Shown: positions 1,659 through 21,555 of the stretch, one piece after another | How positions within the stretch are numbered: position 1 is the first letter of the stretch | Layout: the number at the start of each line of letters is the position of its first letter | NCBI GenBank assembly: GCA_903901045.1 | Contig: CAIUPP010000108.1 | Span: 3,720-67,719, forward strand | DNA length: 64,000 nucleotides | Direction: 5' to 3' | DNA from: an uncultured Planctomycetota bacterium | GTDB taxonomy: Bacteria; Planctomycetota; Brocadiia; CAIUPP01 | The notes under the pieces: generated by a model | The model's database searches: none | Told to the model about the DNA's origin: nothing | What the model saw: only the letters and a program-made list of their open reading frames with translations | Translations under genes and position numbers: made by a program

Positions 1659-3017
1659 ATGATAGAAGGCCTGCTCGCCCGTGACGAGGGCAAGACGCTG
1701 GAGTTCAAGGAGAACTGCCGTCCGCTGGACCGCATTGTGCGGACCGCCGTGGCGTTCGCCAACACCGCAGGCGGCACTATCGTCATCGGCGTGAAGGACA
1801 AGAGTCGAGAGGTGGCAGGCATTGCCGACCCGTTGACCGACGAAGAGAGACTGGCCAACGCCTTTGCCGAGAACATCCGTCCTTTGCTGCTTCCCGACAT
1901 TCAGATTCAGACGTGGCGCAATCGCCAACTGCTTGTCGTGACGGTGCCCCATGCCGTCGGTCCCTACTTCGTTCGTTCTGAAGGAGCGGAGACCGGCGTC
2001 TATGTTCGGCTCGGTTCCACCAACCGCCCGGCGGGTCCGGAACTCGTTGCCGAGATTCGCCGTCTGACCCGGAATACGTTTTTCGATGAACAGCCTTGCC
2101 CTGAGGCAAGCTCGGAAGACGTTGACTTCCGAGCTGCTTCCGAGTTCTTTGCGGCGGCCTCACGCCCGTTCACGCCGTCGAAGCGACAGTCACTCAACCT
2201 CGTTGTGGGCCGGGGAGCGCATGAACGTCCCACCAACGGGGCAGTGCTCCTATTTGGCAAGACACGCTCTCACGTCTTTCCGTCGGCAACCATCCGGTGC
2301 GCTCGATTTGCCGGAGCGGACACGGCCAGGTTCCTGGATCAAACAGAGATTGACGAGTACATGCCAAGAGCCGTCGAAAGCGCGATTGCTTTCATTGAGC
2401 GCCATACCCGACAAGGCATCGAGATCGGCCGCGTTCGCAGGCGCGAAGTGCCGGAGTACCCCGTCGCGGCCGTACGCGAAGCCGTTATCAATGCCATCGT
2501 TCACGCCGATTACAGCATCGGTGGGGGCGGCACGAAGATCGCCGTCTTCAGTGACCGCATCGAAATCACCAATCCCGGCCTGCTTCCATTTGGTCTGACT
2601 CTGGAGGCGGCCCTATCGGGCGTCTCACGTTTGCGAAACCGTGTGATCGGCCGCACATTCCGAGAACTGGGGCTCATAGAGCAATGGGGTTCCGGCATCG
2701 GACGCATCGTCGCTGTCTGCGCCGCGTCGGGTCTTCCCATACCGCGCTTTGAGGAACTGGGCACCCATTTCAGGGTGACCTTGTTCGGCGAACATCTGGC
2801 CGCCCCCGTGCGCCAGGAGTGGCAAACGCTATTGTTGGAGCATCTTGCCAAGGAAGCCCGGATTTCCACTCAGGCAGCCGCAAAGTTGTGGAATACGTCG
2901 GACCGTACCGCTCGAACCCGCCTGCGCAGGCTTGTGGACGATGGCTTGCTTGCAGAAGTGGGTCGGGGGCCGAGAGATCCCTATCGCGCTTATGTGTTGA
3001 AGACAAAGTTGGCATGA
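1659..3017 (+). CDS. AlbA_2 (Schlafen-type) plus HATPase_c_4 domain protein with C-terminal wHTH; putative ATP-dependent DNA-binding regulator
   Basis: EGKTLEFKE...FANTAGGTIVIGV at the N-terminus, REAVINAIVHADYS...IEITNPG in the middle, and an HTH-like C-terminus (ISTQAAAKLWNTSDRTARTRLRRLVDDGLL). Confidence 0.8.
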   Translation: MIEGLLARDEGKTLEFKENCRPLDRIVRTAVAFANTAGGTIVIGVKDKSREVAGIADPLTDEERLANAFAENIRPLLLPDIQIQTWRNRQLLVVTVPHAVGPYFVRSEGAETGVYVRLGSTNRPAGPELVAEIRRLTRNTFFDEQPCPEASSEDVDFRAASEFFAAASRPFTPSKRQSLNLVVGRGAHERPTNGAVLLFGKTRSHVFPSATIRCARFAGADTARFLDQTEIDEYMPRAVESAIAFIERHTRQGIEIGRVRRREVPEYPVAAVREAVINAIVHADYSIGGGGTKIAVFSDRIEITNPGLLPFGLTLEAALSGVSRLRNRVIGRTFRELGLIEQWGSGIGRIVAVCAASGLPIPRFEELGTHFRVTLFGEHLAAPVRQEWQTLLLEHLAKEARISTQAAAKLWNTSDRTARTRLRRLVDDGLLAEVGRGPRDPYRAYVLKTKLA

Positions 3018-6123: not shown

Positions 6124-6140
6124 CGAAAAGTATATAAACC
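6124..6140 (+). promoter_or_regulatory. CGAAAAGTATATAAACC island motif, near-identical to the copy at 8759-8775
   Basis: Read directly. No convincing ORF lies downstream. Confidence 0.3.
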
Positions 6141-6510
6141 CCTCCTGCCTTCCTGCGGCAGCGAAGGCTATCATCATTGGTCGTCTTCATGTCGCAGGCT
6201 CGCGTCGGTGGCCGGTTCCCGTCGCCAACTCAGTTTTGCGCAGCCGGGGCGTTCTTTCTTCTGGTCGGCCCATGACTTCAATGTGGTCGGCCCTCTTTCA
6301 CCTGGCTGTCCATCACGCGTAAACTCCGCACATAGTTCTCAACGGGCTGGAACGCCTCTGCCGAATGACATCCCGGTTCTTCAGAAAGCTCAAGATCGGG
6401 CATGCCGCACGTCCAGAAACCCCATCTGTCCAGGCGGAAATGGATTTCATGTCACGATACAGGCGTTGAGAGGCAAGTACTTCACTGACAGAGAGTTACA
6501 TGGTGAAATT

Positions 6511-7196: not shown

Positions 7197-7481
7197 CTAT
7201 TCTTCCTGTGCCATTGCGGCATTGTCAATCAGCTTGGATGCCTGTCGCTTGGTCAGTCCAGGAGCTATCTCGACTCCTAGAGTCTTCAGATACTGCAACT
7301 GCTTGGTAGTCGCAGGCTCTCCGTTCATGCCTTCCCGCTCTTCTCTCATCTGGTCCATCCGTTCATCCTTTGCAATCTCGCCCAGGATTCTTACGGCAGA
7401 TCCTTCATCAGACACCTTGCCTTTCAACTGCGCCAACAGCTCCAGGTAATGGTCCACTTTCGCTTGTATGCTTGCTTTCAT
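7197..7481 (-). CDS. small protein with C-terminal HeH/DUF3072-like motif (ATTKQLQYLKTLGVE..TKRQASKLID); paralogue of 8156-8446
   Basis: The ATG at 7481 lies after GGAGGTGA. Motifs are shared with the paralogue along the whole length. Confidence 0.6.
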   Translation of the reverse strand: MKASIQAKVDHYLELLAQLKGKVSDEGSAVRILGEIAKDERMDQMREEREGMNGEPATTKQLQYLKTLGVEIAPGLTKRQASKLIDNAAMAQEE

Positions 7482-7520
7482 TTTCAGTTCACCTCCTTTC
7501 AATTGCTTGAATTTGCCGCT

Positions 7521-7833: not shown

Positions 7834-8121
7834 CTACAGGGTCTCGATAATCGCGTCTGTGATCTCGGACGCTCGCTTCTGGCTCAAGTCCTTGGGAATG
7901 CTCCCATCATGGTCCAGAATGAACGATATCTGATCCAGTGTTGCAGGGGCATTGGTCCCCTTTGCCTCTGGGCCTTCCTCGTTCTGGTCCCGCAGGTTTC
8001 CATTTCGCTTCAGCCTGTGTCTGGCATGAAGCAATTCTTCGATGGCTTTCCCACATTCCACTCTGGCACAATTCAGCAAAGCGATCTGTCGATCCAGCAG
8101 TTCAATGTATTTCTCCACCAT
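7834..8121 (-). CDS. small protein: coiled-coil N-terminus plus degenerate HeH-like C-terminus (ATLDQISFIL..SQKRASEITD)
   Basis: The ATG at 8121 lies after AAGGAGGTGA. Confidence 0.6.
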   Translation of the reverse strand: MVEKYIELLDRQIALLNCARVECGKAIEELLHARHRLKRNGNLRDQNEEGPEAKGTNAPATLDQISFILDHDGSIPKDLSQKRASEITDAIIETL

Positions 8122-8155: not shown

Positions 8156-8446
8156 TCATCCCTCCCTCTCTCTGGCTTTATCAATCAGCTTCGATGCCTG
8201 CTCGAAGGTAATGCTCGGGCTGAACTCTACTCCCAACCTTCGCAAGTAGGCCTTCTGCTTTTCTGTGGCGCCATCGCCAACGTGCTGTTGCCTTTCCTGC
8301 CTGATCTGGTTGGCCCGAATGTCCTTAGCCATCTCCTGAAAGATGACCAAAGCGACCTCCCGATCTACCCCAAAATCCTTGATCCCTTTGAAGAGTTCAA
8401 GATACTCTGTGGCTGTCATGCCTGTTGTTTCATTCTCGTTTGCCAT
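8156..8446 (-). CDS. small protein with C-terminal HeH/DUF3072-like motif (ATEKQKAYLRRLGVE..FEQASKLID)
   Basis: The ATG at 8446 lies after CAGGAGGTGA. First gene of a four-gene minus-strand array. Confidence 0.65.
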   Translation of the reverse strand: MANENETTGMTATEYLELFKGIKDFGVDREVALVIFQEMAKDIRANQIRQERQQHVGDGATEKQKAYLRRLGVEFSPSITFEQASKLIDKAREREG

Positions 8447-8758: not shown

Positions 8759-8775
8759 CGAAAGATATATAAACC
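8759..8775 (+). promoter_or_regulatory. CGAAAGATATATAAACC island motif upstream of the 8813 gene
   Basis: About 44 nt upstream of the ATG at 8813. Confidence 0.35.
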
Positions 8776-8812
8776 CCACCCTCTTTGCATTGTCACTCTG
8801 AAGTTACTACAC

Positions 8813-9376
8813 ATGGACGTTTTCACACTCGCACGAATCAAGAACAGGTATCCGGTCGATTTGGATAGTAGTTATGCTCCTCGGAAGTACGCTGCGGACT
8901 ACCTTCTTCAATGGCAAGGTAGACGTTATGGAAATTCATGGGATCGAGAGAGATATGTTCTCTCAGAGGCCCTTGCTCAACCTGGTCCTGAAGTCAAGAC
9001 CCTGGCCGAGCAGGTCTTCGGAAGCCAAGTTCGCGGGCAAAAGCTCCAGGTCATGCATGAAGCCTCTTTGATCTCCGCCCGATACGAGCTTCACCACCGC
9101 ATTCTCAATGATCTCAACCATCGGCTTTACGGCCTGCAAGAGCGGATCAGCATCACGAAGATGCTCGATACCTGGGGACAGTCGAAACAGCTAATCGACT
9201 TGGAGAAGCTTCTGATCAACCTGGAGGCCCAGAAGAATGATGAACGCCTGGCCTTCTGGAAAGACACCCTGAAAGTCAGACAGGAAATGTTCACCGGAGT
9301 CCGGGAATACCAGTCTGCAAGACAGAGAGCAACAATCTTCAAGGACTTGGAGGCGGGCGATGCCAATCAAGCATAG
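8813..9376 (+). CDS. coiled-coil hypothetical protein, translationally overlapped with the downstream ATPase
   Basis: 187-aa ORF with a 17-nt overlap onto 9360. Confidence 0.55.
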   Translation: MDVFTLARIKNRYPVDLDSSYAPRKYAADYLLQWQGRRYGNSWDRERYVLSEALAQPGPEVKTLAEQVFGSQVRGQKLQVMHEASLISARYELHHRILNDLNHRLYGLQERISITKMLDTWGQSKQLIDLEKLLINLEAQKNDERLAFWKDTLKVRQEMFTGVREYQSARQRATIFKDLEAGDANQA

Positions 9377-11051
9377 CGGCAACCCGGACCGCGTCCGAGA
9401 ACTCTGCCGACAGCTCAAGCCCATTCTTGGAGAGAAGATGGAGCAGGTGTTCCAGGCGTACCTGGCTGAGGACGAAACGGGAAAGCAGCAGCTGGAAGCC
9501 TATCTGGAACTGCTTCAGGCAAAGCATATGCCCGTGCGACTCGACGCGGTTGCCACTCAACTCGTTCCCCCGAATCCCGCGCAAGCTCAGGGTGAATATG
9601 AACTGGGCACCATCCTCTATGGCGGGAAGGATCGCGGCACCTTTGGCCTCCGAGAAAATGAATGGATCCAGCATGTGGGCATCTTCGGCAGGACCGGCGC
9701 GGGCAAGACGAATTTGGGTTTCAAGATCGTCGAAGAACTGGTCAAGCATGGAAAACCTGTTCTCATCTTCGACTGGAAAAGGAATTATCGAGACCTACTC
9801 ACCAAGCCGCTCTTCAAGGACGCGAAAGTGTATACGGTCGGCAAGCCCATCTCTCCCTTCACATTCAATCCCTTGATCCCGCCGCCCGGGACCAGTCCGA
9901 AGACGTGGCTCAAGAAACTCGATGAAGTCATCGCGCATTCGTACATGCTGGGGAATGGCGTGCTCTATCTCCTGCAGCAGACTCTTGACCTACTCTACGA
10001 GGAGTTTGGGGTCTACGATGGCACAGTCCAGCACTGGCCGACGTTTCAGGATGTTCTGGACAAGGCCAGAAAGCTCGATGCGCGAGGAAGGGAAGCTGGG
10101 TGGTTGTCATCCACTTTGAGAGCGTTGGCGTCGCTCTGCTTCGGAGACATGGGCGACCTTGTGAATCATCCCTCCGCCAATAGTCCTGATCAACTCCTCG
10201 ACGAGACGGTTATCCTTGAACTGGACGCATTGACTCAACAGGATAAAATCTTCTTCGCCTCGGCGCTACTTCTGTGGATTCATCACCGCAGGATGACCGA
10301 ACCAACCCGAGAACAGTTCAAGCACGCGATCGTAATTGAGGAGGCCCACCATCTCCTCACGGACGAGCGAAAGAGCCTAGTGGGCGGGCAGTCGGTCATG
10401 GAAATTACGTTCCGTGAAATCAGGGAGTTCGGCGAAAGCATGGTCTTGCTCGACCAACATCCGAGTCAGATATCCCTTCCTGCCCTCGGAAACACATTTG
10501 CGACCATATCCCTGAATCTCAAGACTTCGAAAGACGTGACTGCGATGGCTCAGTGCATGCTTCTTGAAAACGAGGAAAAGGATATTCTCGGCAGCCTGGA
10601 AGTCGGTCAGGCCGTAGTCAAGCTGCAGGGAAGAGTCCAAGGGCCGTTCCTGATCCGCATTCCCGAGTTCCAGATCGTGAAGGGCGCGGTTACGGATGAG
10701 ATGATCCGGGCCAGATTACGGACAGAACAGGAGTACGCGCCTGGAATCTCACGTCAGGAGCACAAACCACCGGCGCCGCCAGTGCCTTCTCTGCCATCAA
10801 TCGCACTGGCTAAACCAGAAACGGACGATTTCGTGGCGGCGTTTCTCAATGATGTGGTCGCTCATCCTGAATGCGGCATCGCGGAACGGTACAAGCGACT
10901 CGGCATTAGTGTGCGCCAAGGTCAAAAGATCAAGCTTCGGCTTCTCGAAGCGGGCCTAGTCCATGAGCAGGCAGAGTTCACGAAGACTGGGCGATTGATG
11001 AGACTGGAGTTGACGGGCAAAGGGCACGCAATCGTCGCGGCCTCCACATAG
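9360..11051 (+). CDS. FtsK/HerA-superfamily P-loop ATPase (DUF87-like) with C-terminal winged HTH
   Basis: Walker A GIFGRTGAGKTN, Walker B AIVIEEAHHLL, LLDQHPSQ. C-terminal RYKRLGISVRQGQKIKLRLLEAGLV...LTGKGHAIV. Confidence 0.85.
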   Translation: MPIKHSGNPDRVRELCRQLKPILGEKMEQVFQAYLAEDETGKQQLEAYLELLQAKHMPVRLDAVATQLVPPNPAQAQGEYELGTILYGGKDRGTFGLRENEWIQHVGIFGRTGAGKTNLGFKIVEELVKHGKPVLIFDWKRNYRDLLTKPLFKDAKVYTVGKPISPFTFNPLIPPPGTSPKTWLKKLDEVIAHSYMLGNGVLYLLQQTLDLLYEEFGVYDGTVQHWPTFQDVLDKARKLDARGREAGWLSSTLRALASLCFGDMGDLVNHPSANSPDQLLDETVILELDALTQQDKIFFASALLLWIHHRRMTEPTREQFKHAIVIEEAHHLLTDERKSLVGGQSVMEITFREIREFGESMVLLDQHPSQISLPALGNTFATISLNLKTSKDVTAMAQCMLLENEEKDILGSLEVGQAVVKLQGRVQGPFLIRIPEFQIVKGAVTDEMIRARLRTEQEYAPGISRQEHKPPAPPVPSLPSIALAKPETDDFVAAFLNDVVAHPECGIAERYKRLGISVRQGQKIKLRLLEAGLVHEQAEFTKTGRLMRLELTGKGHAIVAAST

Positions 11052-11115: not shown

Positions 11116-12558
11116 TTATGGTTGGCATGACTTGTCAAGAAGGGTCTCACATAATTTCGCAATCATGGCTTGTCGAGGGTCTTTATACGCCTTGAGATAC
11201 CGACTATTTACGTCCGCGACCCAGGTTTTGGCCTTGCGCGTCAAATCCTGCTCGTGGACAAGGATGTTTCCCAACGCCTGTAATGCTGCCGGATATTTCT
11301 TTTCCCTCATGTGGATTCTGTACAGTTCGATGTTCGCGCGAATGACACCAAAGGTTGCTGAGACCGCTTCAGACTGTACTCTCGCAAGCTTCAGACGCTC
11401 CAGCACATCAGAAACATGGATGTGTCCAATCCCTGCTTCGTATCTGCAATCGTCCAACAACGCCTGTTCGATCGTCATTCGAGCCTCTTCCTCAGGATGG
11501 TCCCTTTCATACACTGTGCCAAGCTGCTTCAACAAATCCCTCGCGGTGTTCATGGTCTCGTCGGCTTTTTCGAAGAGTATCCTCAACCTTTTCCGGTGTT
11601 CACATGGATCGAGACGCACTAAGGATCGTATTTCGTTACGGCAAGCTGAAAGCAGGTCACGATACGCCTTGAATTCCTCCAAGTCGTCCAAATGTGTTCG
11701 TCTGCTTTCGTCGAGATCCTTCAGCAATCGCAGTGATTCCTCTGCAGCGGCGCGAGCCTTTTCGAACTCTCCCGCATGGCGCAATTGCTTTGAGAGCAGT
11801 CGGTAAGCTGTGTAGTGACCTCCTGTTTGCACGAGAAACTCCTCTATCTCCTTTCGTTGACATAGATGCTCTTCGTGCTCAACGTTGCTGGTTGCGCTGC
11901 CCGTGTGCAAGTGGAAATACTGCGCCAAAAGATCCACGAAGAATGGTCTCTTGCCGCGGAGACACAATCGCGCGAGGGCATTGGCGGCGCTTTTCTTGCG
12001 AAAGTATCCCTTTTCCTTACAGATGTGATTCTCGACCAGGAGACCTAGAACGAACCAATCATCGGCAAACTCCATCGCGCTAGCCAACCGCTCCTGAGTT
12101 CCCGTCTGTGCGCCAAGCACGACTTCGCCAAAGCTTCCAAGTAGTTGCTCAACAGTGACATCCGACCCGGGTGGAGAGATGCGTTTGATGCCGCACAACA
12201 GTTGGAGCAACTTCAGGAGTAGCTGTCGTTCCTTCTCCGTATACTGACTGCAGCATCGAGAAAGATCGCGCATCCACCGTTCAGGTTCGGCTGCGCGGGT
12301 ATCGCCCGTAACCAGCGTCGGCATTGGCGTGAGGCCAAGCTTCTCAAAAAGAAGCTTCGCCCTATGGTAACCCAGAGGCGTCGTCTTCGGCTGATTGAGT
12401 ATTCTGGAGATGAACCCTGGGTCAACGCCAAGCTCTCGTGCGAGTTGCACCTGACTCTTGATCTTCCGCCGTTTTTTATACAAACGTATCTGATTTCCGA
12501 TATCCTCCACTTCAATTCCCCACCTCCGCCGCCCCCCCTCACTCTGGTCAAGACTCAT
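11116..12558 (-). CDS. XRE-family HTH regulator fused to a ~400-aa all-helical TPR-like domain
   Basis: IGNQIRLYKKRRKIKSQVQLARELGVDPGFISRILN at the N-terminus. GGAGG lies 8 nt before ATG 12558. The remainder is long and helical-repeat-like. Confidence 0.75.
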   Translation of the reverse strand: MSLDQSEGGRRRWGIEVEDIGNQIRLYKKRRKIKSQVQLARELGVDPGFISRILNQPKTTPLGYHRAKLLFEKLGLTPMPTLVTGDTRAAEPERWMRDLSRCCSQYTEKERQLLLKLLQLLCGIKRISPPGSDVTVEQLLGSFGEVVLGAQTGTQERLASAMEFADDWFVLGLLVENHICKEKGYFRKKSAANALARLCLRGKRPFFVDLLAQYFHLHTGSATSNVEHEEHLCQRKEIEEFLVQTGGHYTAYRLLSKQLRHAGEFEKARAAAEESLRLLKDLDESRRTHLDDLEEFKAYRDLLSACRNEIRSLVRLDPCEHRKRLRILFEKADETMNTARDLLKQLGTVYERDHPEEEARMTIEQALLDDCRYEAGIGHIHVSDVLERLKLARVQSEAVSATFGVIRANIELYRIHMREKKYPAALQALGNILVHEQDLTRKAKTWVADVNSRYLKAYKDPRQAMIAKLCETLLDKSCQP

Positions 12559-12796: not shown

Positions 12797-12967
12797 ATGT
12801 TCAAGGAACTGGGCGACAGATTGGAAGCGGGAATGCGTGGAATGATCATGTTGCTCGTGCTCTTGATGGCGCTGTCCGTCATTGCGCTCGGTACTTATCT
12901 GATAGTGATGGTCTGCTGGCGGATTGGCGTACTGTGTGCCAACAGCATTTTGCAGGGCCCATGGTAG
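12797..12967 (+). CDS. 56-aa single-pass membrane peptide
   Basis: Hand translation gives MFKELGDRLEAGMRGMIMLLVLLMALSVIALGTYLIVMVCWRIGVLCANSILQGPW. Third-position G/C use is better than in the overlapping 88-aa ORF. Below the ORF-track length cut-off. Confidence 0.35.
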   Translation: MFKELGDRLEAGMRGMIMLLVLLMALSVIALGTYLIVMVCWRIGVLCANSILQGPW

Positions 12968-12976
12968 AGGAATCCC

Positions 12977-13567
12977 ATGTTTGAGACCGTGAAACGCCTG
13001 CTGAGCTACTTCCTGGGCCGTTCGTCGCAGGGCGCTGCGCGGCCGCCGGCGTCGGCGCCAAATCAGCCCCTGACCAGCGACGAAATGCCGATCCCTCCCG
13101 GTCGGCCCATCGAGCGCACGGTTGAACGGCAAGTCATTCCGGGGACGAGGCTCTCAATCATGGTTACCCAATCGGCGTATTCTGGCCCGGATGGGTCGCT
13201 CGACCGGGTGCGTGATGTCCGGGGCGTGATGGCTGGCTGCAGCCATCTGGTCACAAGCTATGAGCAACTCGGCGGACGCTGCATCTTCTGTCAGACGGAG
13301 GCCGCGGAGTTGGTGTCGGCTGGCGCGACAGACCTTGCCGCGTTGGAAGCAATGACGCTCTTTTGCGTGTCGTGTATGTCCGAATGCGCATTATGCCGCC
13401 GCACGATATGCCGTCGGCACGCTCTCCAGTGGCAGGATGATGTCGGCGCGGTCGCATATCTCTGTCCGACCTGCCGAGAGGCCGCAGACCGCGCGCGATT
13501 TTTCCAGAAGCTGATGCGCGCGATTACGTTCCCGTTTGTCAACAATCCGGATCAGGAACACAAATGA
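12977..13567 (+). CDS. cysteine-rich zinc-binding protein with RING-like (C4C4) spacing
   Basis: GAGGA lies 5 nt before the ATG. Spacing is C102-x2-C105-x24-C130-x2-C133-x3-C137-x2-C140-x22-C163-x2-C166, plus C145 and H148. Confidence 0.65.
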   Translation: MFETVKRLLSYFLGRSSQGAARPPASAPNQPLTSDEMPIPPGRPIERTVERQVIPGTRLSIMVTQSAYSGPDGSLDRVRDVRGVMAGCSHLVTSYEQLGGRCIFCQTEAAELVSAGATDLAALEAMTLFCVSCMSECALCRRTICRRHALQWQDDVGAVAYLCPTCREAADRARFFQKLMRAITFPFVNNPDQEHK

Positions 13568-15744
13568 GCGCCCTGGATCGAACGATCAACACAGGTTTCC
13601 TCGACAACGGCGACTTCGGGTTCCGAAGGCTGACGCCCGACCCTGAACTCGCCCGTCTGGAGAAGATCCTGGACAAGAAAGGCATGAAACAGCGTCCGGA
13701 AGTCCAGGAACTGGAACTGCAAGCCGCTCTTGGCTGGCCAGGCACGAGGGTATGGGCGCGGGAGCGACTGCAAGCAGCCATTGATGCCGAAGAAATGGAT
13801 GCCGTTCGCAACCCGGATGAGTTCCGGCCGTACGCGCCAAATCATCTGCTGAACGATGGCGACCTCCACGTCTTCAACCAAGTGGACGGGGTAGAACGAC
13901 GGTTGCGTCCTGACGTTCTTCTGCGCGGGACTCTTATCTGTGGCCCTCAGGGCGGCGGCAAGACCAGGCTCGTGGCCTACATTATTAGACAGATTCTGCG
14001 CAACTACCCCTCAATCCGTGTCTTCATGATTGACCCGAAGGGAGAACTTGTCTCGTACGCCGACGATTTTCCCACCACAGTCCATGTTCCCGGTTCGGAG
14101 ATTTCACTCGATTTCGGCGCTCCTGAAGAGAAGGATCGCGCCGCTCACCTACGAGAGAACCTCCAGCATATGAGTGGCGTCTGCCATCTTATTCAGGGAA
14201 CGAGCCTTCTGTACGAAGCCGGTGAGATTGCGCTTCCTCAGCTCGATGTCGCCCGGCGCGTCACCGGTCAGAATCTCGAAGTCTGCATCCGCGACATTCG
14301 ACTTGCATTGCCGATGGTTCCGGATACTTCAGATTACAAGCGCCAGGGCTTCCTGCAATCGACTCAGACGGCCACGCTGCGAATCGAACTCGGGAGCGGC
14401 AAGCTCTTCGTATGCAGAAAAGGCGCCTCAATGCGTCGATTGTTCGGTGCCAATCCCATTCTCACTACGCAGGACCTTGTTGACCCGTGGCCTTGCGAAA
14501 TGCTGCTGCTCACGATCTTCAACTGGCTCCGTCGGGACGCGCGTAGCCAGCCGACGACGAATGAACTGCGGGCACTTGTGGTCATTGATGACGCGCACCT
14601 GTACATGAGCAAAGAGGTCAGCGCGGTTATCACGGCCCCACTCGAATGGACGTTGGCGATTCTGCGCAGCAGTGGCGTTGGCGTCATTCTGGTGAGCCAT
14701 CTGCCAAGCCAAATTCAGCCGGGCGTGCTGGCTCTGTGCCAATTGATGCTGATTGTCGGAGGCGTGCATGGCGGCCCTGATCGGGAGGTGATCGCGAAGG
14801 CACTTTCACTGAATCACGAGCAAGAGCGGCAGCTTGGGCGCATGCAGCCGCGTGAGGTCGTGGGTTTCTACGCCGGGTCGCGATGGCCGTTACCCATTCA
14901 TGGGTGGACTGCAGATATGCCAGACCCCCGTCCCGACTGGTCAGCGATTGCGGAGCGCAGCAAGGCGTTCATCGCCAGTCTGGGCATACTTCCCTACCAG
15001 AACCTGTGGGAGTACCGGGAGGTGGTTGTTGTCCAAAACCCGCCTGCCCAACCCCAGGTACCCGCCGCCGGGGACTCGTCGATGGAACGCCCGACGGCCG
15101 AAGGCCTGCCAGCGAACGCCAATCGACTGCTATGGGATTGCATCTCCTATCCTTTTGATAAGTACACGGCCAGGTTGGATCGTCTCGAACTGTCCGGTCG
15201 CGACGGACAGACCGCACGGCGTGTCCTCGAACAGAGCGACTTGGTCCGTTCTCTGGACGTCGGACAAGCAATCTATTTGATCGTCACGCGTGATGGCTAC
15301 AAGGTTCACCAGCAAGCACCCCACGCTCACTTCAGTGAACAACTTCTAGAGCACAACTACCTAGAAGCTCTGGCCCGACATTATCTACTCCAGGAGCCTT
15401 CCGTAGACCGAGTGGAATTGCACGTGCCGGTCAATGACAAAGGAGCTTGCGTGGACATGGTCGTATACCGGAAAGACGGATCCATGGAGGCTTGGGAGCT
15501 CACGATCAGCACCGGCAATGTAACCGGGAACGCAATCAAGTGTGGCGGCGAAGGCTTCCGTCGCATCGTCTTTCTGTGCAGGGACCACGCCGTGCGGCAG
15601 GCTGTGTCAAAGCGCATCGAACGATCGGGACTGCCACCGGACCTGAAACACCGCCTGCGGTACGTGTTGTTTAGCACACTGACGCGCAAGGACCAAGAGG
15701 CGCGACGTGAACGCGGTTGGCCCCGGAACGAAGTGAGACACTGA
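13564..15744 (+). CDS. FtsK/HerA-superfamily ATPase with wHTH and C-terminal PD-(D/E)xK-like domain
   Basis: ATGA overlap with the upstream gene. Walker A GPQGGGKT, Walker B LVVIDDAH, VSHLPSQ (paralogous to 9360-11051). C-terminal EHNYLEALARHYL..VELHVP..VDMVVY..AWELTIS..NAIKC. Confidence 0.85.
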   Translation: MSALDRTINTGFLDNGDFGFRRLTPDPELARLEKILDKKGMKQRPEVQELELQAALGWPGTRVWARERLQAAIDAEEMDAVRNPDEFRPYAPNHLLNDGDLHVFNQVDGVERRLRPDVLLRGTLICGPQGGGKTRLVAYIIRQILRNYPSIRVFMIDPKGELVSYADDFPTTVHVPGSEISLDFGAPEEKDRAAHLRENLQHMSGVCHLIQGTSLLYEAGEIALPQLDVARRVTGQNLEVCIRDIRLALPMVPDTSDYKRQGFLQSTQTATLRIELGSGKLFVCRKGASMRRLFGANPILTTQDLVDPWPCEMLLLTIFNWLRRDARSQPTTNELRALVVIDDAHLYMSKEVSAVITAPLEWTLAILRSSGVGVILVSHLPSQIQPGVLALCQLMLIVGGVHGGPDREVIAKALSLNHEQERQLGRMQPREVVGFYAGSRWPLPIHGWTADMPDPRPDWSAIAERSKAFIASLGILPYQNLWEYREVVVVQNPPAQPQVPAAGDSSMERPTAEGLPANANRLLWDCISYPFDKYTARLDRLELSGRDGQTARRVLEQSDLVRSLDVGQAIYLIVTRDGYKVHQQAPHAHFSEQLLEHNYLEALARHYLLQEPSVDRVELHVPVNDKGACVDMVVYRKDGSMEAWELTISTGNVTGNAIKCGGEGFRRIVFLCRDHAVRQAVSKRIERSGLPPDLKHRLRYVLFSTLTRKDQEARRERGWPRNEVRH

Positions 15745-15980
15745 TGGAAAGAATCAACTGGCGTGCCGTCTTGCTCGTGGCTGGCGTCATCTTCCTGCTC
15801 GCCTATCGCCGCGCTCTCGGCGAGTTGCTCTCTGAACTCCGCATCCACGAAATGTGGCGCGAATTCTGCGGAAGCATCTGGGCCATGCCATCGCTTGGCC
15901 GGTTCACCTTGATCGTTATGGTCATGGCGCTTCTCTACGTCACTGCATACTTCCTGGTCCTGAACCGGAGACAGCGATGA
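15744..15980 (+). CDS. 78-aa two-TM membrane protein
   Basis: TGATG overlap with the ATPase stop. Two hydrophobic segments. Confidence 0.55.
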   Translation: MERINWRAVLLVAGVIFLLAYRRALGELLSELRIHEMWREFCGSIWAMPSLGRFTLIVMVMALLYVTAYFLVLNRRQR

Positions 15981-16244: not shown

Positions 16245-16475
16245 ATGGGGTTCTTTGAACTCGTTGGCCTCGTCACTGCCCTCGTCTTCACCTACAGGGT
16301 TTTGCGGCGGCGTGGCCTGTCGGGGACGCGTTTGGGGCCCGAGTCCCGGACTCGCACCATCGGCCGAAGTTTGAAAACAATAGGTGGTCAAGATGAGATG
16401 TACTGGTCTTTTACACGAGGACGCCAGTACTCTTCCGGCAGACCAGTCGGGAAACGCGTTTCTGGTAAGGAGTGA
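16245..16475 (+). CDS. 76-aa protein with N-terminal TM segment and basic tail
   Basis: Strong SD (AAAGGAGGTAAGC-ATG). Confidence 0.55.
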   Translation: MGFFELVGLVTALVFTYRVLRRRGLSGTRLGPESRTRTIGRSLKTIGGQDEMYWSFTRGRQYSSGRPVGKRVSGKE

Positions 16476-16480
16476 AAGCC

Positions 16481-16702
16481 ATGCGATTAATCAGTGCTAA
16501 TGGCGAGGTACACGAAGTAGAAGAAGATGCTGACGGATATGTGGATATCGGCCGAATGCACAGTGACAGTGGATCAGCCGGACGTGCGCTGATCGTACAA
16601 CACGCCGACGGCAGTAATGAGATTCTTCCGCCAGCCGGAAAGAGTTTGGTCAGGCCCGGCGATGTCTTCGTTGACGCGCCTCGCGCCGAGCGAGGGAGAT
16701 AG
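16481..16702 (+). CDS. 73-aa ubiquitin-like (beta-grasp, ThiS/MoaD/multi-ubiquitin-like) candidate
   Basis: AAGGAG lies 8 nt before ATG 16481. The C-terminus LVRPGDVFVDAPRAERGR resembles the ThiS/MoaD/Ub last strand plus tail. Sits immediately upstream of the E2-like and JAB-E1 genes. Confidence 0.5.
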   Translation: MRLISANGEVHEVEEDADGYVDIGRMHSDSGSAGRALIVQHADGSNEILPPAGKSLVRPGDVFVDAPRAERGR

Positions 16703-16704
16703 CA

Positions 16705-17094
16705 ATGGGCTTGTGTAACAACACCATCTTGCTCCGGGACCTCAAGGAGCTTTCGATCGTGTGTAAGGTGCTGGCTTCGCGCGACTTGCGCACCGTCATT
16801 GTCGAAGATGTGCGGTTGCCTCCGGGCTGGAATCGCACACACACGCGGATGCGCATCCAGATCCCGGAGGACTATCCACTCAGTCCTCCGGGCGTGTCGT
16901 CCAGCCCAATCTTTCTTGAGACGGGCTTGCGGTATCACGGGCAGGTACCCAGAGATTATCACAAAAACTGCACGGTCGCAGAAGAGGGGTGGGCGTGGCT
17001 CTGTTACGAGAGCATTGATTGGGCGCCTAACCGGGATAACCTTATCTCTCTGCTCGAGCGGGTTCGCGCTGACCTGACGAATCCGCGGCTCTGA
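16705..17094 (+). CDS. UBC/E2-like protein (prokaryotic E2 family)
   Basis: IQIPEDYPLSPP followed by WAWLC(100)YESIDWAPNRDNLISLLERV parallels the UBC pattern YPxxPP ... C ... WxP. Confidence 0.65.
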   Translation: MGLCNNTILLRDLKELSIVCKVLASRDLRTVIVEDVRLPPGWNRTHTRMRIQIPEDYPLSPPGVSSSPIFLETGLRYHGQVPRDYHKNCTVAEEGWAWLCYESIDWAPNRDNLISLLERVRADLTNPRL

Positions 17095-17105
17095 AGGAGA
17101 CGATT

Positions 17106-18686
17106 ATGAAAACAACTGTCTTGCGCCTGACCCAAAACCAATGGGCGCAAATATGTGACTCCATTAGGAACGCCCGCCAAGTGGAACAGTTCGGCTTCTT
17201 GTTAGCCCGCCGAGCGGTTTCACATCTGGGAGAAGATATTTTCTTGGGCCAAAAGATGATCTTCGCTGAAAGAAGAGACATGGAGGTCCAGTCCGCCGGG
17301 TATGCGCGGCCAGGCCGTAAACTCCAGGGGCTGGCTTACCAGTTGGCATATAACGGGAACTTGTCCATCATTGATTTTCATACGCATACGCATTCGGGGC
17401 AGCCGCATTTCAGTTCTATTGATGACCACCACGGTCAGATGAACGCCGCCTATGTCACCGAACATTTCCCCGCACAGTGCCAGATGGGAATGGTAGTTCT
17501 CAATCAGGATGCCACGGCCTATGAGGGAAGAATATACGATCCAAAGGCGAGGCGCTTCGACACTCTGCACCGAGTCGAACTCCTTGGGTCGCCAATCTCT
17601 TGTATGCCAGCACCTGATAAGTTGACCGCTTCCGATCAGGAACTTTTCGCTCGACACAGCCTAATTGCTGGGTGGAACCAGTCCCGCCTAGCCACCATCC
17701 GTGTGGGTCTTGCAGGTTGTGGCGGAACGGGTGCTCTCATGCTGCAGGGGCTAGTGGGCATGGGCGTGGGAAGGCACGCTGGCATCATCGTTTGCGATCC
17801 AGACCGCGTGGAGAAGTCCAACCTGCCGAGACTGCCTTATGCTGAAGGCAAGGACGCCGGCCATTTCAAAGTGCGCGTCGCAAAGCTCTTCCATTATCGG
17901 CGCGACCGGCACGTCCGAATCCGTCCTTACTGCTTGGGGGTGCAGTCGTTCTGGGCTCGGGAGGCGCTCAAGACGGCGCACCTGCTCGTCGGTTGTGTGG
18001 ACTCCGAAGCGGCTCGTAGCGTTCTGATGGAACTCTCCCTCCGCTACTTGATCCCCTATCTCGATGTCGCCACAGAGATCGTTCCAGTGGGTGGCGGCAA
18101 GTATGACGCCGTCGGTCAAGTCCGCGTGGTCCTCCCTGGCAAGACTGGATGCCTTTTTTGTTGTGGTGGAATCGATACACAAGAGGTCGCCGCGGAGCGG
18201 ATGCCTCACCGTTGGCGCCGCCAGCGAGAACGGGCAGGGTATGTTCGTAATACTCAGGTCACGCCGACGCCGGCAGTCATTCATCTTAACGCGGTTCTCA
18301 CCGGCCTGGCTCTATCTCACCTGGCGAAGCTTATCCAGGGAGAGGATTTCTCCGGTCACGAGCACTTGTACTACAGCCGCAACCGCGATGCCATCATGGC
18401 TGTGGCCTGCAAACCGAATCCGGAGTGTTCTGCGTGCGGTCCTGGTGGAATTCTCGGAGCTGGAGACCCCATTGAGGAGAACCCCGGATCGGGCTCAACG
18501 GAGTTGATGGAGGTCGGCCCAACCGAATGTCCAGAAGGAGGGGACAGTGGCAAGGTTACAGACATGGAGGTCGCCCAGGTGTCGAACCATGACTCTGGAA
18601 CGGCAAAGGCCGACGATGAAACTCATCGCATGCCCTTTTGGTCGTGGCTGTGTGGGAGAAGATCGCGTATTCACAAGTTGAACTGA
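17106..18686 (+). CDS. JAB/JAMM metallopeptidase - ThiF/E1-like adenylyltransferase fusion
   Basis: AAGGAG SD. JAMM motif: E27, H94-T-H96-x7-S104-x2-D107. E1 part: GLAGCGGTG, DPDRVEKSNLPR, LLVGCVDSEAAR, and CxxC pairs C349/C352 and C441/C444. Acidic disordered tail. Confidence 0.9.
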   Translation: MKTTVLRLTQNQWAQICDSIRNARQVEQFGFLLARRAVSHLGEDIFLGQKMIFAERRDMEVQSAGYARPGRKLQGLAYQLAYNGNLSIIDFHTHTHSGQPHFSSIDDHHGQMNAAYVTEHFPAQCQMGMVVLNQDATAYEGRIYDPKARRFDTLHRVELLGSPISCMPAPDKLTASDQELFARHSLIAGWNQSRLATIRVGLAGCGGTGALMLQGLVGMGVGRHAGIIVCDPDRVEKSNLPRLPYAEGKDAGHFKVRVAKLFHYRRDRHVRIRPYCLGVQSFWAREALKTAHLLVGCVDSEAARSVLMELSLRYLIPYLDVATEIVPVGGGKYDAVGQVRVVLPGKTGCLFCCGGIDTQEVAAERMPHRWRRQRERAGYVRNTQVTPTPAVIHLNAVLTGLALSHLAKLIQGEDFSGHEHLYYSRNRDAIMAVACKPNPECSACGPGGILGAGDPIEENPGSGSTELMEVGPTECPEGGDSGKVTDMEVAQVSNHDSGTAKADDETHRMPFWSWLCGRRSRIHKLN

Positions 18687-18924: not shown

Positions 18925-19614
18925 ATGAATATGCCAGAGTCAACCAATGATCGAGCGCATAAGGTTGTCCTCTATGCGAGGGTCAGCACGCACGATCAGT
19001 CTGTAGACATGCAGCTCGTGGAACTCAGACGCTTCGCAGAGGCGAGAGTATGGAAGGTAGTCGGCGAGTTCGCGGACAAAGGCATCTCCGGCGCCAGAAC
19101 TTCTCGCCCGGAGTTTGACCGGATGATGAAAATGCTTAGGCGGCGCGACGCCGACGTGCTGCTCTGCTGGAAATACGACCGCGTGGGTCGGAGTACGAGC
19201 CACCTCCTCAGCATCCTGGAGGAACTGCGCGCGCTCAACGTAGGGTTCTGCTCCATGACTGAGGGCGTAGACACAACAACGCCCGCCGGCAAAATGGTCT
19301 TCACATTTCTCGCTGGCATCGCTGAGTTTGAGCGGGGCCTCACCCGGGAGCGCGTTCTGGCAGGAATCCAGAATGCCCGTGCACGCGGAGTCCGGTTTGG
19401 CAGACCGCGCGTCGGCTTTGACATTGCCGCGGCAGTGGTGTTTCGCAAGCAAGGCATGTCCATGCGGGAGGTTGCGAGAACTGTCGGCGTCAGTCCTGCC
19501 ACGGTCTTCCGCGTTCTGAAAGCACTCGAGCAATCAAGGGAGACCGCCAGCAGTGCTCCAGAAGGCGCCGCAAAAACCTGCGGCAAGGATTCTGAAACAA
19601 CGGTGCAATCATGA
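18925..19614 (+). CDS. small serine recombinase (resolvase/invertase family) with C-terminal HTH
   Basis: VVLYARVSTHDQ catalytic serine motif, DRVGRS, GRPRV, HTH (REVARTVGVSPATVFRVL). Confidence 0.9.
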   Translation: MNMPESTNDRAHKVVLYARVSTHDQSVDMQLVELRRFAEARVWKVVGEFADKGISGARTSRPEFDRMMKMLRRRDADVLLCWKYDRVGRSTSHLLSILEELRALNVGFCSMTEGVDTTTPAGKMVFTFLAGIAEFERGLTRERVLAGIQNARARGVRFGRPRVGFDIAAAVVFRKQGMSMREVARTVGVSPATVFRVLKALEQSRETASSAPEGAAKTCGKDSETTVQS

Positions 19615-19734: not shown

Positions 19735-20034
19735 ATGGCCGCGAACATCACACTTGCTGAATACCCACAAACGCCCTGGATGACCATTGACCAAGTGGCT
19801 GCGTATCTCTCCGTCAGCGCAGGCACGGTTCGCAATTGGGTCAGCCAGAGGTACATTCCATTCGTCCGCCGTGGCCGCGTCGTGCGGTTCCATCGCGAAA
19901 GAGTCGACCAGTGGATCAGCGCTGGCGCCTGCGCCGGACGGCGCAGGGTTCCTGCTCCCCCTCCCACCGGAGCTACGACGCTGATTTCCGAACGACAACG
20001 CTTAGGACAGGATCCGCTTTCAGCATCCGGCTGA
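19735..20034 (+). CDS. xis: excisionase/AlpA-type MerR-like HTH protein
   Basis: MTIDQVAAYLSVSAGTVRNWVSQRYIPFVRRGRVVRFHRERVDQW. The 3' end overlaps the convergent integrase by 62 nt. Confidence 0.7.
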   Translation: MAANITLAEYPQTPWMTIDQVAAYLSVSAGTVRNWVSQRYIPFVRRGRVVRFHRERVDQWISAGACAGRRRVPAPPPTGATTLISERQRLGQDPLSASG

Positions 20035-21346
20035 CCGCCTGGCGTTTCGCCTCCATGCCGAAATGCGTATACCTCTGCGTCATGTCCAGCGAGGCGTGTC
20101 CCAGGATGCTCTGCACAAGAATAGGATTCATGCCTTGTTCCTGCGCCCGCGTGGAGAAAAGATGCCTGAGCGAATGTGCTTTCGTCAGGTCCGGCCGACC
20201 GATTTTCTTCGTCAGCTTCATAAACTCCTGTCGAATTCGTTTCTCAGGAATCTGCCCCATCCCACGGAGAAACGGGAGCATCTTTCGCATGACTTCCTTT
20301 TCGTTCAAAGCCCCCTCGGTCCGCGCCTGGTCGGCCATTTCTCTCAGGTGATTGGAGAACGCCTGCGCAGAGACAAAGCGTTCCATTTCTCGCTGCTTGC
20401 CCTCCACGGATTCCCGGTTCAGAAAAATAAACCCTTCCTTCCGGCCGTCAACGCACCTCAGCAGCATCTCTTTGATCTCCGGCAGGATTGGCAGGGCGCG
20501 CTCGTCACGGGTCTTCACGTTCCAGAACATCTCCGGCTTTGAGCGAATGTGAAAAACCCCTTCCTCAAAATTGACGTCCGAGACCAGAAGATGGGTCAAT
20601 TCCCCCACCCGAAGGCCGTAAGCCGCCAGCATGAAGAAGACAGGCTTCTGCCATTCATCGCAAGCCTTGAAAAACGCCTGTTGTTCTTCAACCGACAGCA
20701 TCTCAGGCTTGCGACCATCATCTCTGCCAATCTTGTCTATCTGGACCGTGCCGAATGGATTCTCTGCATAGGGGGGCAGGTAGTGCCGTTTCCGCGCCCA
20801 ATTGAACGCCGTGCGGCACGTGCTCAAGATGAATGCAATACCGCCCGCGCGATAGGGGCGTTGCGGCCCCTTCTGACTGCCGTTACGGGTTCGAGTCAGT
20901 GCCCGCATCCATTTGATGAAGTCCTCGACAGTCCCTTGGTCGACATGGGCGGCTGTGGAAATGCCGCCTCGGGTGCGGGAGAACTCAGTAAAATGAGACA
21001 GTGCTGCGCGATATCGGTCCACCGTGCGAACGGCGAGCCGCTGCACTTTCTCGGCGTGGTCCACATATTCTTCCACCAATCTGTCAACGCCGACGTGGGT
21101 ATAGCCGAATGGAGAGGGGCGGTCTTCCTCAAGGCTTTGATTTGAGCCGCTGGCTGCCGCGCGAGCGGAATTCAGGTTACCTTCGACACGCTGCCGAATG
21201 CTTCGCCCTTTTTCCCGGTAGTAAAGATAATATGTTCGGCCGCGCTTGTAGATGGTGACGTTGCCAAGCCGCTCAACCTTGGCGTCGCGGGTATGCCCCT
21301 TCTCCGTCTGTCCTGTGTGGCCTTTGGGTAGGTGTTCTTGGGCCAT
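19973..21346 (-). CDS. int: tyrosine integrase adjacent to tRNA-Ser
   Basis: GLRVGELTHL (R), HSLRHLFST (HxxR), GHASLDMTQRYTHF (H..Y). The ATG at 21346 lies after GGAGGATATCAG. The ORF opens at 21391. Confidence 0.9.
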   Translation of the reverse strand: MAQEHLPKGHTGQTEKGHTRDAKVERLGNVTIYKRGRTYYLYYREKGRSIRQRVEGNLNSARAAASGSNQSLEEDRPSPFGYTHVGVDRLVEEYVDHAEKVQRLAVRTVDRYRAALSHFTEFSRTRGGISTAAHVDQGTVEDFIKWMRALTRTRNGSQKGPQRPYRAGGIAFILSTCRTAFNWARKRHYLPPYAENPFGTVQIDKIGRDDGRKPEMLSVEEQQAFFKACDEWQKPVFFMLAAYGLRVGELTHLLVSDVNFEEGVFHIRSKPEMFWNVKTRDERALPILPEIKEMLLRCVDGRKEGFIFLNRESVEGKQREMERFVSAQAFSNHLREMADQARTEGALNEKEVMRKMLPFLRGMGQIPEKRIRQEFMKLTKKIGRPDLTKAHSLRHLFSTRAQEQGMNPILVQSILGHASLDMTQRYTHFGMEAKRQAVSRMLKADPVLSVVVRKSAS

Positions 21347-21465
21347 CTGATATCCTCCAGTGGGTCGGAAAGTTTTCACAAATTCTTTCACAAACCGTTA
21401 CAAAGGAGGATAGCAAATGGAATAGACCTTGTCAACTCAGGGCTATTCCAATAGGTCGGCAAACA

Positions 21466-21555
<90 letters not shown>

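Follow-up and report, generated by a model that had tools for sequence, protein, structure and literature searches.

A probable zinc-finger accessory subunit of a HerA/FtsK-type ATPase, rather than a RING E3, in a Planctomycetota operon with a Bub-like conjugation module

Bacterial ubiquitination-like pathways (Bil, Bub, and Type II of the cyclic oligonucleotide-based antiphage signalling systems, CBASS) have no established E3 ligase, hence the value of a candidate E3. The Type I set of Bub (6E) operons comprises a fusion of a ubiquitin-like protein (Ubl) with an E2 (BubAB), a JAB-E1 fusion (BubCD), and a DUF6527 protease (BubE) (PMC11601596; Iyer 2006, PMC1779556, row 6e). HerA-superfamily ATPases are in turn known beside a dedicated small partner gene, as in HerA-NurA and in the defence systems of HerA with Sir2 or DUF4297. 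Elements of both kinds meet in a stretch of 64,000 nucleotides (nt) from contig CAIUPP010000108.1 of an uncultured Planctomycetota bacterium (GCA_903901045.1), which is called the window here. A zinc-finger protein of 196 amino acids (aa), encoded on the plus strand at 12977..13567, lies there between a small membrane protein and a HerA/FtsK-type ATPase, upstream of putative genes for Ubl conjugation. The initial annotation had suggested that it could be a RING-like E3 or a substrate adaptor, or else a pair of zinc ribbons tethering the ATPase. According to our analysis, it is probably a zinc-stabilised accessory subunit of the ATPase with a three-zinc, FYVE/RIM-like finger, and not a RING E3.

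The translated protein has Cys at residues 88, 102, 105, 130, 133, 137, 140, 145, 163, and 166, and His at residues 90, 148, and 195. The spacing C-x2-C-x24-C-x2-C-x3-C-x2-C-x22-C-x2-C, noticed earlier at residues 102–166, is exact; C102 to C166 correspond to nt 13280–13474, with C145 and H148 inside. When the protein was shuffled 200,000 times with its composition preserved, four C-x2-C motifs appeared in only 69 cases, so the pattern is beyond chance. Six-frame translation gave 565 open segments in the window, and the RING regular expression C-x2-C-x(9-39)-C-x(1-3)-[HC]-x(2-3)-C-x2-C-x(4-48)-C-x2-C matched one of them, at 13280–13474 (residues 102–166). C145 and H148 had been regarded as extra residues; they are instead core ligands, and together with C102 and C105 they are the sole ligand positions kept in effectively all members of the family. 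A sixth conserved pair had been overlooked, namely residue 88 (C in the window protein, D in close homologues) and H90.

Only four close homologues, with 57–66% identity, came out of a word-indexed search; in these every Cys/His ligand is invariant, except for Asp in place of C88. With a 94-sequence profile, the same kind of search returned 12 proteins only, and 1.8 billion representatives, searched exhaustively with a profile, yielded 104 family proteins, nearly all of about 130–250 aa. The ligand alignment contained 108 sequences, with about 105 homologues, 102 of them full-length representatives. The genomes with family matches are mostly from Planctomycetota (Phycisphaerae, Planctomycetales, Kuenenia), but Nitrospirales, Bryobacterales, and Ca. 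Multivoraceae are represented as well. A genome scan with a DNA pattern of the cysteines recovered 120 stretches, of which about 18 are true family members and the others unrelated or chance matches. Several members are on contigs of 1–1.5 kb without gene context. No informative name was attached to any member in the sources searched. The Pfam scan of the zinc protein gave nothing beyond a chance-level match to zf-4CXXC_R1 (E 0.07), and the scan of 94 members gave no recurrent family; identity with zf-4CXXC_R1 was rejected, as the match was not repeated across members. The family has no Pfam or PDB assignment, and no name or description of it was found in the literature searched.

The conserved ligands form six knuckles, each with two residues:

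13238..13246, plus strand: knuckle K0 (C88, H90), putative zinc site II with K2
13280..13291, plus strand: knuckle K1 (C102, C105), putative zinc site I with K4; N-terminus of helix 103–114
13364..13375, plus strand: knuckle K2 (C130, C133), putative zinc site II with K0
13385..13396, plus strand: knuckle K3 (C137, C140), putative zinc site III with K5; treble-clef knuckle
13409..13420, plus strand: knuckle K4 (C145, H148), putative zinc site I with K1; turn of hairpin 143–145/150–153
13463..13474, plus strand: knuckle K5 (C163, C166), putative zinc site III with K3; N-terminus of helix 164–184

K1 is invariant in all 102 full-length representatives. C145 of K4 is invariant too, and residue 148 is H in 100 and C in 2 of the 102, so K1 and K4 are kept by every full-length member. 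K0 and K2 are jointly kept in 79 representatives and jointly lost in 23 (class B); in each of the 79, position 88 holds C or D and position 90 holds H, C, or D, and in the 23 without K2 both positions hold unrelated residues. K3 and K5 are jointly kept in 71 and jointly lost in 31 (class C), and 48 'full' members retain all six knuckles. Three truncated sequences are the only exceptions to joint loss. The ligand columns hold C, H, or D only where the site is present, and unrelated residues where it is absent. If pairings are conserved, K0+K2, K1+K4, and K3+K5 is the sole matching in which every knuckle present in a class has its partner there too. From this pattern we infer three interleaved zinc sites, i.e., two chained cross-braces. 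Three zinc ions would be held in a doubly cross-braced arrangement: site I by C102, C105, C145, and H148, universal in the family; site II by C88, H90, C130, and C133, an optional elaboration; and site III by C137, C140, C163, and C166. The gain and loss of sites makes the family a clean natural experiment with putative two-zinc and three-zinc forms.

The AlphaFold2 model of the zinc protein, built with 94 sequences, has a mean predicted local distance difference test score (pLDDT) of 90.6 and a predicted template modelling score (pTM) of 0.72, with block means of 92–98 for residues 41–180. Its N-terminal half contains helix 2–13, a low-confidence linker, and three strands at 43–82; its end is a long C-terminal helix 164–184 followed by the tail PFV. 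In the zinc module, K2 and K3 are knuckles between short strands, and K4 is in the turn of a hairpin. K3, the hairpin 143–145/150–153, and the K5 helix make up a classical treble clef in the model, and the hairpin bears a knuckle of the second site. This construction, with one second-site knuckle on the hairpin, is that of RING-like binuclear treble clefs (PMC4506424). In the zinc-protein model, the treble-clef helix comes after the last ligand pair, as in FYVE-type fingers.

When the window model was compared with PDB in Foldseek, no match reached E ≤ 0.001. The best matches for the zinc module were the FYVE-type fingers of RIM2, RIM, and rabphilin, with a probability of 0.96 and a target-normalised TM-score (TMt) of 0.50 for 2a20. 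The model of the short family member P0107 (pLDDT 86.8) matched RIM/rabphilin fingers over nearly their full length, with TMt 0.71 for 2cjs_C and TMt 0.66 for 2a20 (root-mean-square deviation 2.4 Å over 55 columns). For both models, these matches had probability 0.96–0.99 and E 0.18–0.45. When the 94-sequence profile was compared with PDB sequences, rabphilin-3A (1zbd_B, E 0.044) and RIM2 were again the best, and the alignment placed K3, K4, and K5 on their CxxC pairs, with K3 on the second CxxC of rabphilin-3A. As all RIM/rabphilin matches are marginal, the zinc module is classed as resembling FYVE-type fingers and not as a member of them. Against viral structures, Foldseek gave nothing at E ≤ 0.001, with a Siva-like protein at the top (E 5.9e-3).

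The FYVE-type layout itself is present. K1, K3, K4, and K5 are four pairs with putative 1+3 and 2+4 ligation, and the fourth starts helix 164–184. Sites I and III would thereby follow the FYVE-type topology of a knuckle, a hairpin with the knuckle of the second site, and a C-terminal helix giving the last two ligands. The RIM/rabphilin-3A fingers (2a20, 2cjs_C, 1zbd_B), which belong to Rab3 effectors and are protein–protein interaction modules, likewise have four CxxC-type pairs, eight ligands in total, with 1+3 and 2+4 ligation, and their last pair is at the N-terminus of a C-terminal helix. Unlike in them, K1 and K2 of the window protein are separated by a helical insert of 24 residues, and there are a putative third interleaved zinc site (K0+K2), an N-terminal sheet, and His instead of Cys as ligand 6; the protein is also bacterial and coupled to an ATPase. 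FYVE domains proper carry the phosphatidylinositol 3-phosphate-binding motifs WxxD, R(R/K)HHCR, and RVC. None of these motifs was found in the window zinc protein by inspection.

Two other cross-braced folds were compared. The UBR-box also has a binuclear RING-like core plus a third zinc held by extensions, but one ligand is common to two metals there and the first site is circularly permuted (PMC4506424), whereas the three interleaved sites of the zinc module would use twelve ligands, all separate; the zinc protein showed no match to the UBR-box in sequence or fold. A B-box, defined by the rule C-x2-H-x7-C-x2-[CD]-x4-C-x2-C-x3-6-H-x2-4-H with 1+3 and 2+4 ligation, was rejected. Its sole match, TRIM28 B-box 2 (E 0.79), was gone with the deeper profile, and its register would pair K2+K4 and K1+K3, which is contradicted by the loss pattern.

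Outside the zinc module, the N-terminal sheet (residues 14–58 of P0107, 43–82 of the window protein) gave non-significant Foldseek matches to Borrelia Pur-alpha and COMM domains (E about 0.08–0.3). The proline-rich linker QGAARPPASAPNQPLT.DEMPIPPGRPIERTVERQ, at residues 18–52 (nt 13028–13132), is near-identical in homologues that are only 57–66% identical overall; its AlphaFold2 confidence is about 70, and it is a candidate short linear interaction motif.

Gene order links the zinc protein to the ATPase; the zinc-protein gene is the second of four genes on the same strand:

12797..12967, plus strand: TMup, single-pass membrane protein of 56 aa, first gene of the core
12977..13567, plus strand: zinc-finger protein of 196 aa
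13564..15744, plus strand: HerA/FtsK-superfamily P-loop ATPase of 726 aa, assigned by profiles and Walker motifs
15744..15980, plus strand: TMdn, two-helix membrane protein of about 78 aa, from ATG at 15744 (the listed open reading frame, ORF, starts from TTG at 15717)

The ATPase was matched by Pfam models HerA_C (24.0 bits, cut-off 22) and DUF87 (23.2 bits, cut-off 23.2), and in PADLOC by mad8 (E 5.6e-14) and HerA models. Its Walker A GPQGGGKT (GxxGxGK[TS]) and Walker B IDDA (DDA) are kept in orthologues. The zinc-protein and ATPase genes overlap by 4 nt (ATGA), and the TMdn gene overlaps the ATPase stop codon by 1 nt (TGATG). A HerA-like ATPase is directly downstream of the zinc protein in every informative locus (about 25), including those of 20%-identity and short variants, and the two small membrane proteins are also present in most informative full-length loci. 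Homologues of TMup have 56–68 aa, a hydrophobic helix, and a C-terminal ...(H/G)(S/P)W, and are directly upstream of the zinc protein in related loci L003, L133, L130, and L132; TMup itself had no Pfam match. Homologues of TMdn (68–84 aa) follow the ATPase in L003, L133, L130, L132, L006, L008, and L050. A natural fusion, P0043, joins the finger (residues 7–188) to ATPase homology (297–709, E 6e-25). The search for related loci with an ATPase alignment returned nothing. Compared with described HerA-partner systems, the window pair likewise has a HerA-superfamily ATPase beside a dedicated small partner gene; unlike in those systems, the partner is a zinc finger without a recognisable enzymatic domain, and a small membrane protein is encoded on each side of the pair, with interchangeable modules further downstream.

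Two further observations were made on ATPases of the window. The C-terminal part of the zinc-protein partner (about 200 residues, 15100–15744) is conserved in orthologues, e.g., as IEH...KG..ID....K.G.M.AYEIT.N...NA.K....LCRD; by eye it resembles a winged helix followed by a PD-(D/E)xK-like nuclease fold, and it had no Pfam match. A second small-protein and HerA pair is coded at 8813–11051 on the plus strand, where a gene for a Cys-free protein of 187 aa overlaps that of a DUF87/HerA ATPase of 563 aa. ATPases of this type are partners of short zinc-finger variants elsewhere, and the upstream partner in the window lacks the zinc module.

The four-gene core is followed in the window by a putative conjugation module:

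16245..16475, plus strand: small ORF of 76 aa with an N-terminal hydrophobic helix, kept only in the close homologue locus L003; no Pfam match
16472..16702, plus strand: candidate ubiquitin-like protein of 76 aa, by position and size only
16705..17094, plus strand: E2-like protein of 129 aa, Prok-E2_E/BubB type (Pfam Prok-E2_E E 6.5e-5, below the gathering cut-off)
17106..18686, plus strand: JAB peptidase-E1 (ThiF) fusion of 526 aa, BubCD-like (Pfam ThiF E 1.6e-27, Prok-JAB E 0.026)

The candidate Ubl, with probable start MRLISANG, ends 2 nt before the E2 gene and is 96% conserved in L003, and its Pfam scan gave no match. Among PDB sequences, the E2-like protein weakly matched UBC E2s (E 0.043) and Citrobacter BubB (E 0.7), and the JAB-E1 fusion was best matched by Citrobacter BubCD (9ea4_A, E 4e-10, residues 67–401). 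Because of these matches the module is considered Bub-like (6E type). Like Bub operons, the window has a Prok-E2_E-type E2 with a JAB-E1 fusion and an island at a tRNA gene. Unlike in Bub, the candidate Ubl and E2 are separate ORFs, and no DUF6527/BubE protein was found among nine operon proteins scanned with Pfam. The published Bub gene sets are without a HerA-like ATPase or a zinc protein of the window type, and C-x3-C-x35-38-H-x2-C, the signature of the metal-binding protein in 6e operons, differs from that of the zinc protein. As a side observation, the close homologue retains Cys100 of the E2-like protein (WAWLCYES), and by eye this residue aligns with Ser in the L133 E2 (YAWYSLH; L133 6429–6827), which recalls the serine oxyester chemistry that has been reported for Bub E2s (PMC11601596).

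Other loci have other modules after the core. It is followed by Ubl/E2/E1 genes in the window, L003, L133, and L006, by GrpE-Hsp70-von Willebrand factor A (vWA) genes in L130, L040, L074, and L078, by a reverse transcriptase with vWA in L132, and by a kinase-like protein in L008; ThiF was found upstream of the core in L026, L077, and L106. The zinc-site class does not follow the type of downstream module. In the literature searched on HerA with Hsp70/vWA/GrpE or HerA with Ubl/E1/E2 systems, the four-gene core is not described. Cross-braced treble-clef fingers and HerA-partner pairs are known kinds; a family with an optional third interleaved zinc site, and a four-gene core with interchangeable modules, appear to be undescribed in the literature searched.

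Taken as an accessory subunit, the zinc protein would be a rigid finger of which the C-terminal helix and PFV tail dock on the ATPase, and its N-terminal sheet and proline-rich linker would stay free for a ligand or for a neighbouring variable module. Zinc protein, ATPase, and the two small membrane proteins, through which the complex may be associated with the membrane, would make a conserved core carried on an integrative island. The core would take up different modules, in the window the Bub-like Ubl/E2/JAB-E1 conjugation set, and may serve in conflict or defence.

Several points weigh against this explanation. Physical contact with the ATPase is suggested by gene order and one fusion. The three-site assignment is drawn from the loss pattern and secondary structure. 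The loss pattern represents only about three evolutionary events, not dozens, as a neighbour-joining tree from which the ligand columns had been left out shows class C as monophyletic and requires two changes for class B. Every RIM/rabphilin match is statistically marginal (Foldseek E 0.18–0.45, hidden Markov model E 0.044). The short-variant loci came from the cysteine DNA pattern, with a bias to one spacing. Finally, of 17 informative loci about 7 have an E1-like gene close to the family member, and a functional link to Ubl conjugation is plausible in the subset that carries it.

From this last point comes the reading that the zinc protein bridges the membrane-tethered motor and the interchangeable modules, and that in the window it recruits, or is modified by, the Bub-like Ubl machine. 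We consider it rather unlikely, though it has some weight: the recurrence of E1-like genes near the core makes it possible that in that subset the zinc protein is a bridge to conjugation or its target. The zinc protein would then be an E3-like adaptor or a primed target, a bacterial ubiquitination-like pathway would for the first time be seen coupled to a motor ATPase, and the four-gene core would be an undescribed modular conflict system, mostly of Planctomycetota.

More doubtful is the explanation that the zinc protein is a substrate or regulatory target of the variable module, being Ubl-conjugated or remodelled by Hsp70/vWA, and that the ATPase is switched on thereby. The zinc protein is constant beside interchangeable protein-modifying or protein-binding modules, its proline-rich linker at residues 18–52 is conserved, of low confidence, and probably disordered, and Type II CBASS offers a precedent, its own enzyme being conjugated by Cap2 (PMC11601596). 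Such a role is compatible with an accessory subunit and does not exclude it.

The idea proposed initially, that the finger is a RING-like E3 or E2 adaptor which binds the E2 of the operon and directs Ubl transfer, perhaps onto the ATPase or a cargo, is improbable to a similar degree. Its eight Cys satisfy the RING regular expression, an E2-like protein and a JAB-E1 fusion are within the operon, E1-like genes recur as said above, and the role is vacant, as Bub and Bil pathways are without a known E3 (PMC11601596). The module can also be called a cross-braced treble clef in the broad sense, being a conserved, predicted zinc-binding, interleaved binuclear module like RING and Prok-RING (Burroughs, Iyer and Aravind 2011, as cited in PMC10557695); the RING ligand set did not hold. 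A C4C4 RING on the eight Cys needs K1+K3 and K2+K5, and the loss pattern points instead to K1+K4, K0+K2, and K3+K5. Nor are all eight cysteines conserved in homologues, a result that the initial annotation had itself named as refuting: C130/C133 are gone in 23 representatives and C137/C140/C163/C166 in 31, and P0112, a class B member from an E2/ThiF operon, is without C130/C133. Unlike in RING/Prok-RING, the putative pairing uses other ligands and the model helix comes after the last pair.

Profiles and folds agree with this. The window protein had no match to zf-C3HC4, zf-RING_2, Prok-RING_1/2/4, or U-box at E ≤ 1, the Prok-RING families being covered through their Pfam models, and the 94 members gave one match to Prok-RING_4 (E 0.029) and one to Pellino_RING (E 0.0012). 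No RING or U-box was among the top 50 PDB matches in Foldseek for either model (window, P0107). A dedicated E3 is also contradicted by the context: the family is not confined to E2-containing operons, and occurs equally without E1/E2 downstream of the core, beside GrpE-Hsp70-vWA, reverse transcriptase, and kinase modules, and the natural fusion joins the finger to the ATPase, not to E2 or E1. The E3 proposal fails because of ligand pairing, profile membership, fold, and lack of an obligate E2 association; judged from sequence, the zinc protein is not a RING E3 and an E3 role is unlikely. As it is most likely not an E3, a wrong annotation is averted, and a testable link is provided between a Bub-like pathway and an ATP-driven motor.

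It is very improbable that the zinc protein is a nucleic-acid-binding finger or a transcription factor, with loading of the ATPase on DNA or regulation of the operon as its task. DNA pumping is the usual activity of HerA/FtsK ATPases, and the N-terminal sheet of short variants is weakly like Pur-alpha (E about 0.08), but matches of the Pur-alpha type are not significant, no DNA-binding family was matched by the window protein and 94 members in Pfam, and the operon already has a divergent helix-turn-helix–tetratricopeptide repeat (HTH-TPR) protein at 11116–12558. Hardly credible are two independent sequential ribbons (C102/C105+C130/C133 and C137/C140+C163/C166) merely tethering the ATPase: K3+K5 would be paired on the sequential reading too, weak Zn_Ribbon_TF matches occur in 6 of 94 members (E at least 0.0048), and the tie to the ATPase stood up well (ATGA overlap, constant adjacency, P0043 fusion), but the independent ribbons did not, because K1 pairs with K4 across K2 and K3, K2 being lost with K0 and not with K1, which is invariant and without K2 must pair with K4; the most conserved pair, C145/H148, would be left unexplained, and the best structural matches are cross-braced fingers.

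The surroundings of the operon contain these features:

11116–12558, minus strand: HTH-TPR protein, divergent from the core
18925–19614: serine resolvase, island end
19735–20034: HTH_17 excisionase-like ORF, island end
19973–21391, minus strand: tyrosine integrase, island end
21466–21555, minus strand: tRNA-Ser(GGA), island end

As the resolvase, HTH_17 protein, tyrosine integrase, and tRNA-Ser come after the operon, it is considered to be on an integrative island. No att-like repeats of at least 18 nt were found for the tRNA-Ser island within 1–22000. In the position of the divergent HTH-TPR gene, a large NACHT-type nucleoside triphosphatase is coded in L001, L002, L130, and L132.

Further upstream, paralogous ORFs of 95–101 aa are on the minus strand at 7197–7502, 7834–8121, and 8156–8446, with the C-terminal motif AT.KQ..YL..LG....L....AS.LID; the one at 7197–7502 has a weak match to DUF3072 (E 9.5e-5). 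A 22-nt direct repeat CGAAAAGTATATAAACCCCTCC at 6124–6145 and 8759–8780, the second copy 86% identical, lies on either side of the block of small ORFs on the minus strand; it may act as a promoter or operator shared by them. Towards the left of the window, a protein of 452 aa (1659–3017, plus strand) carries Schlafen AlbA_2, HATPase_c_4, and a winged helix.

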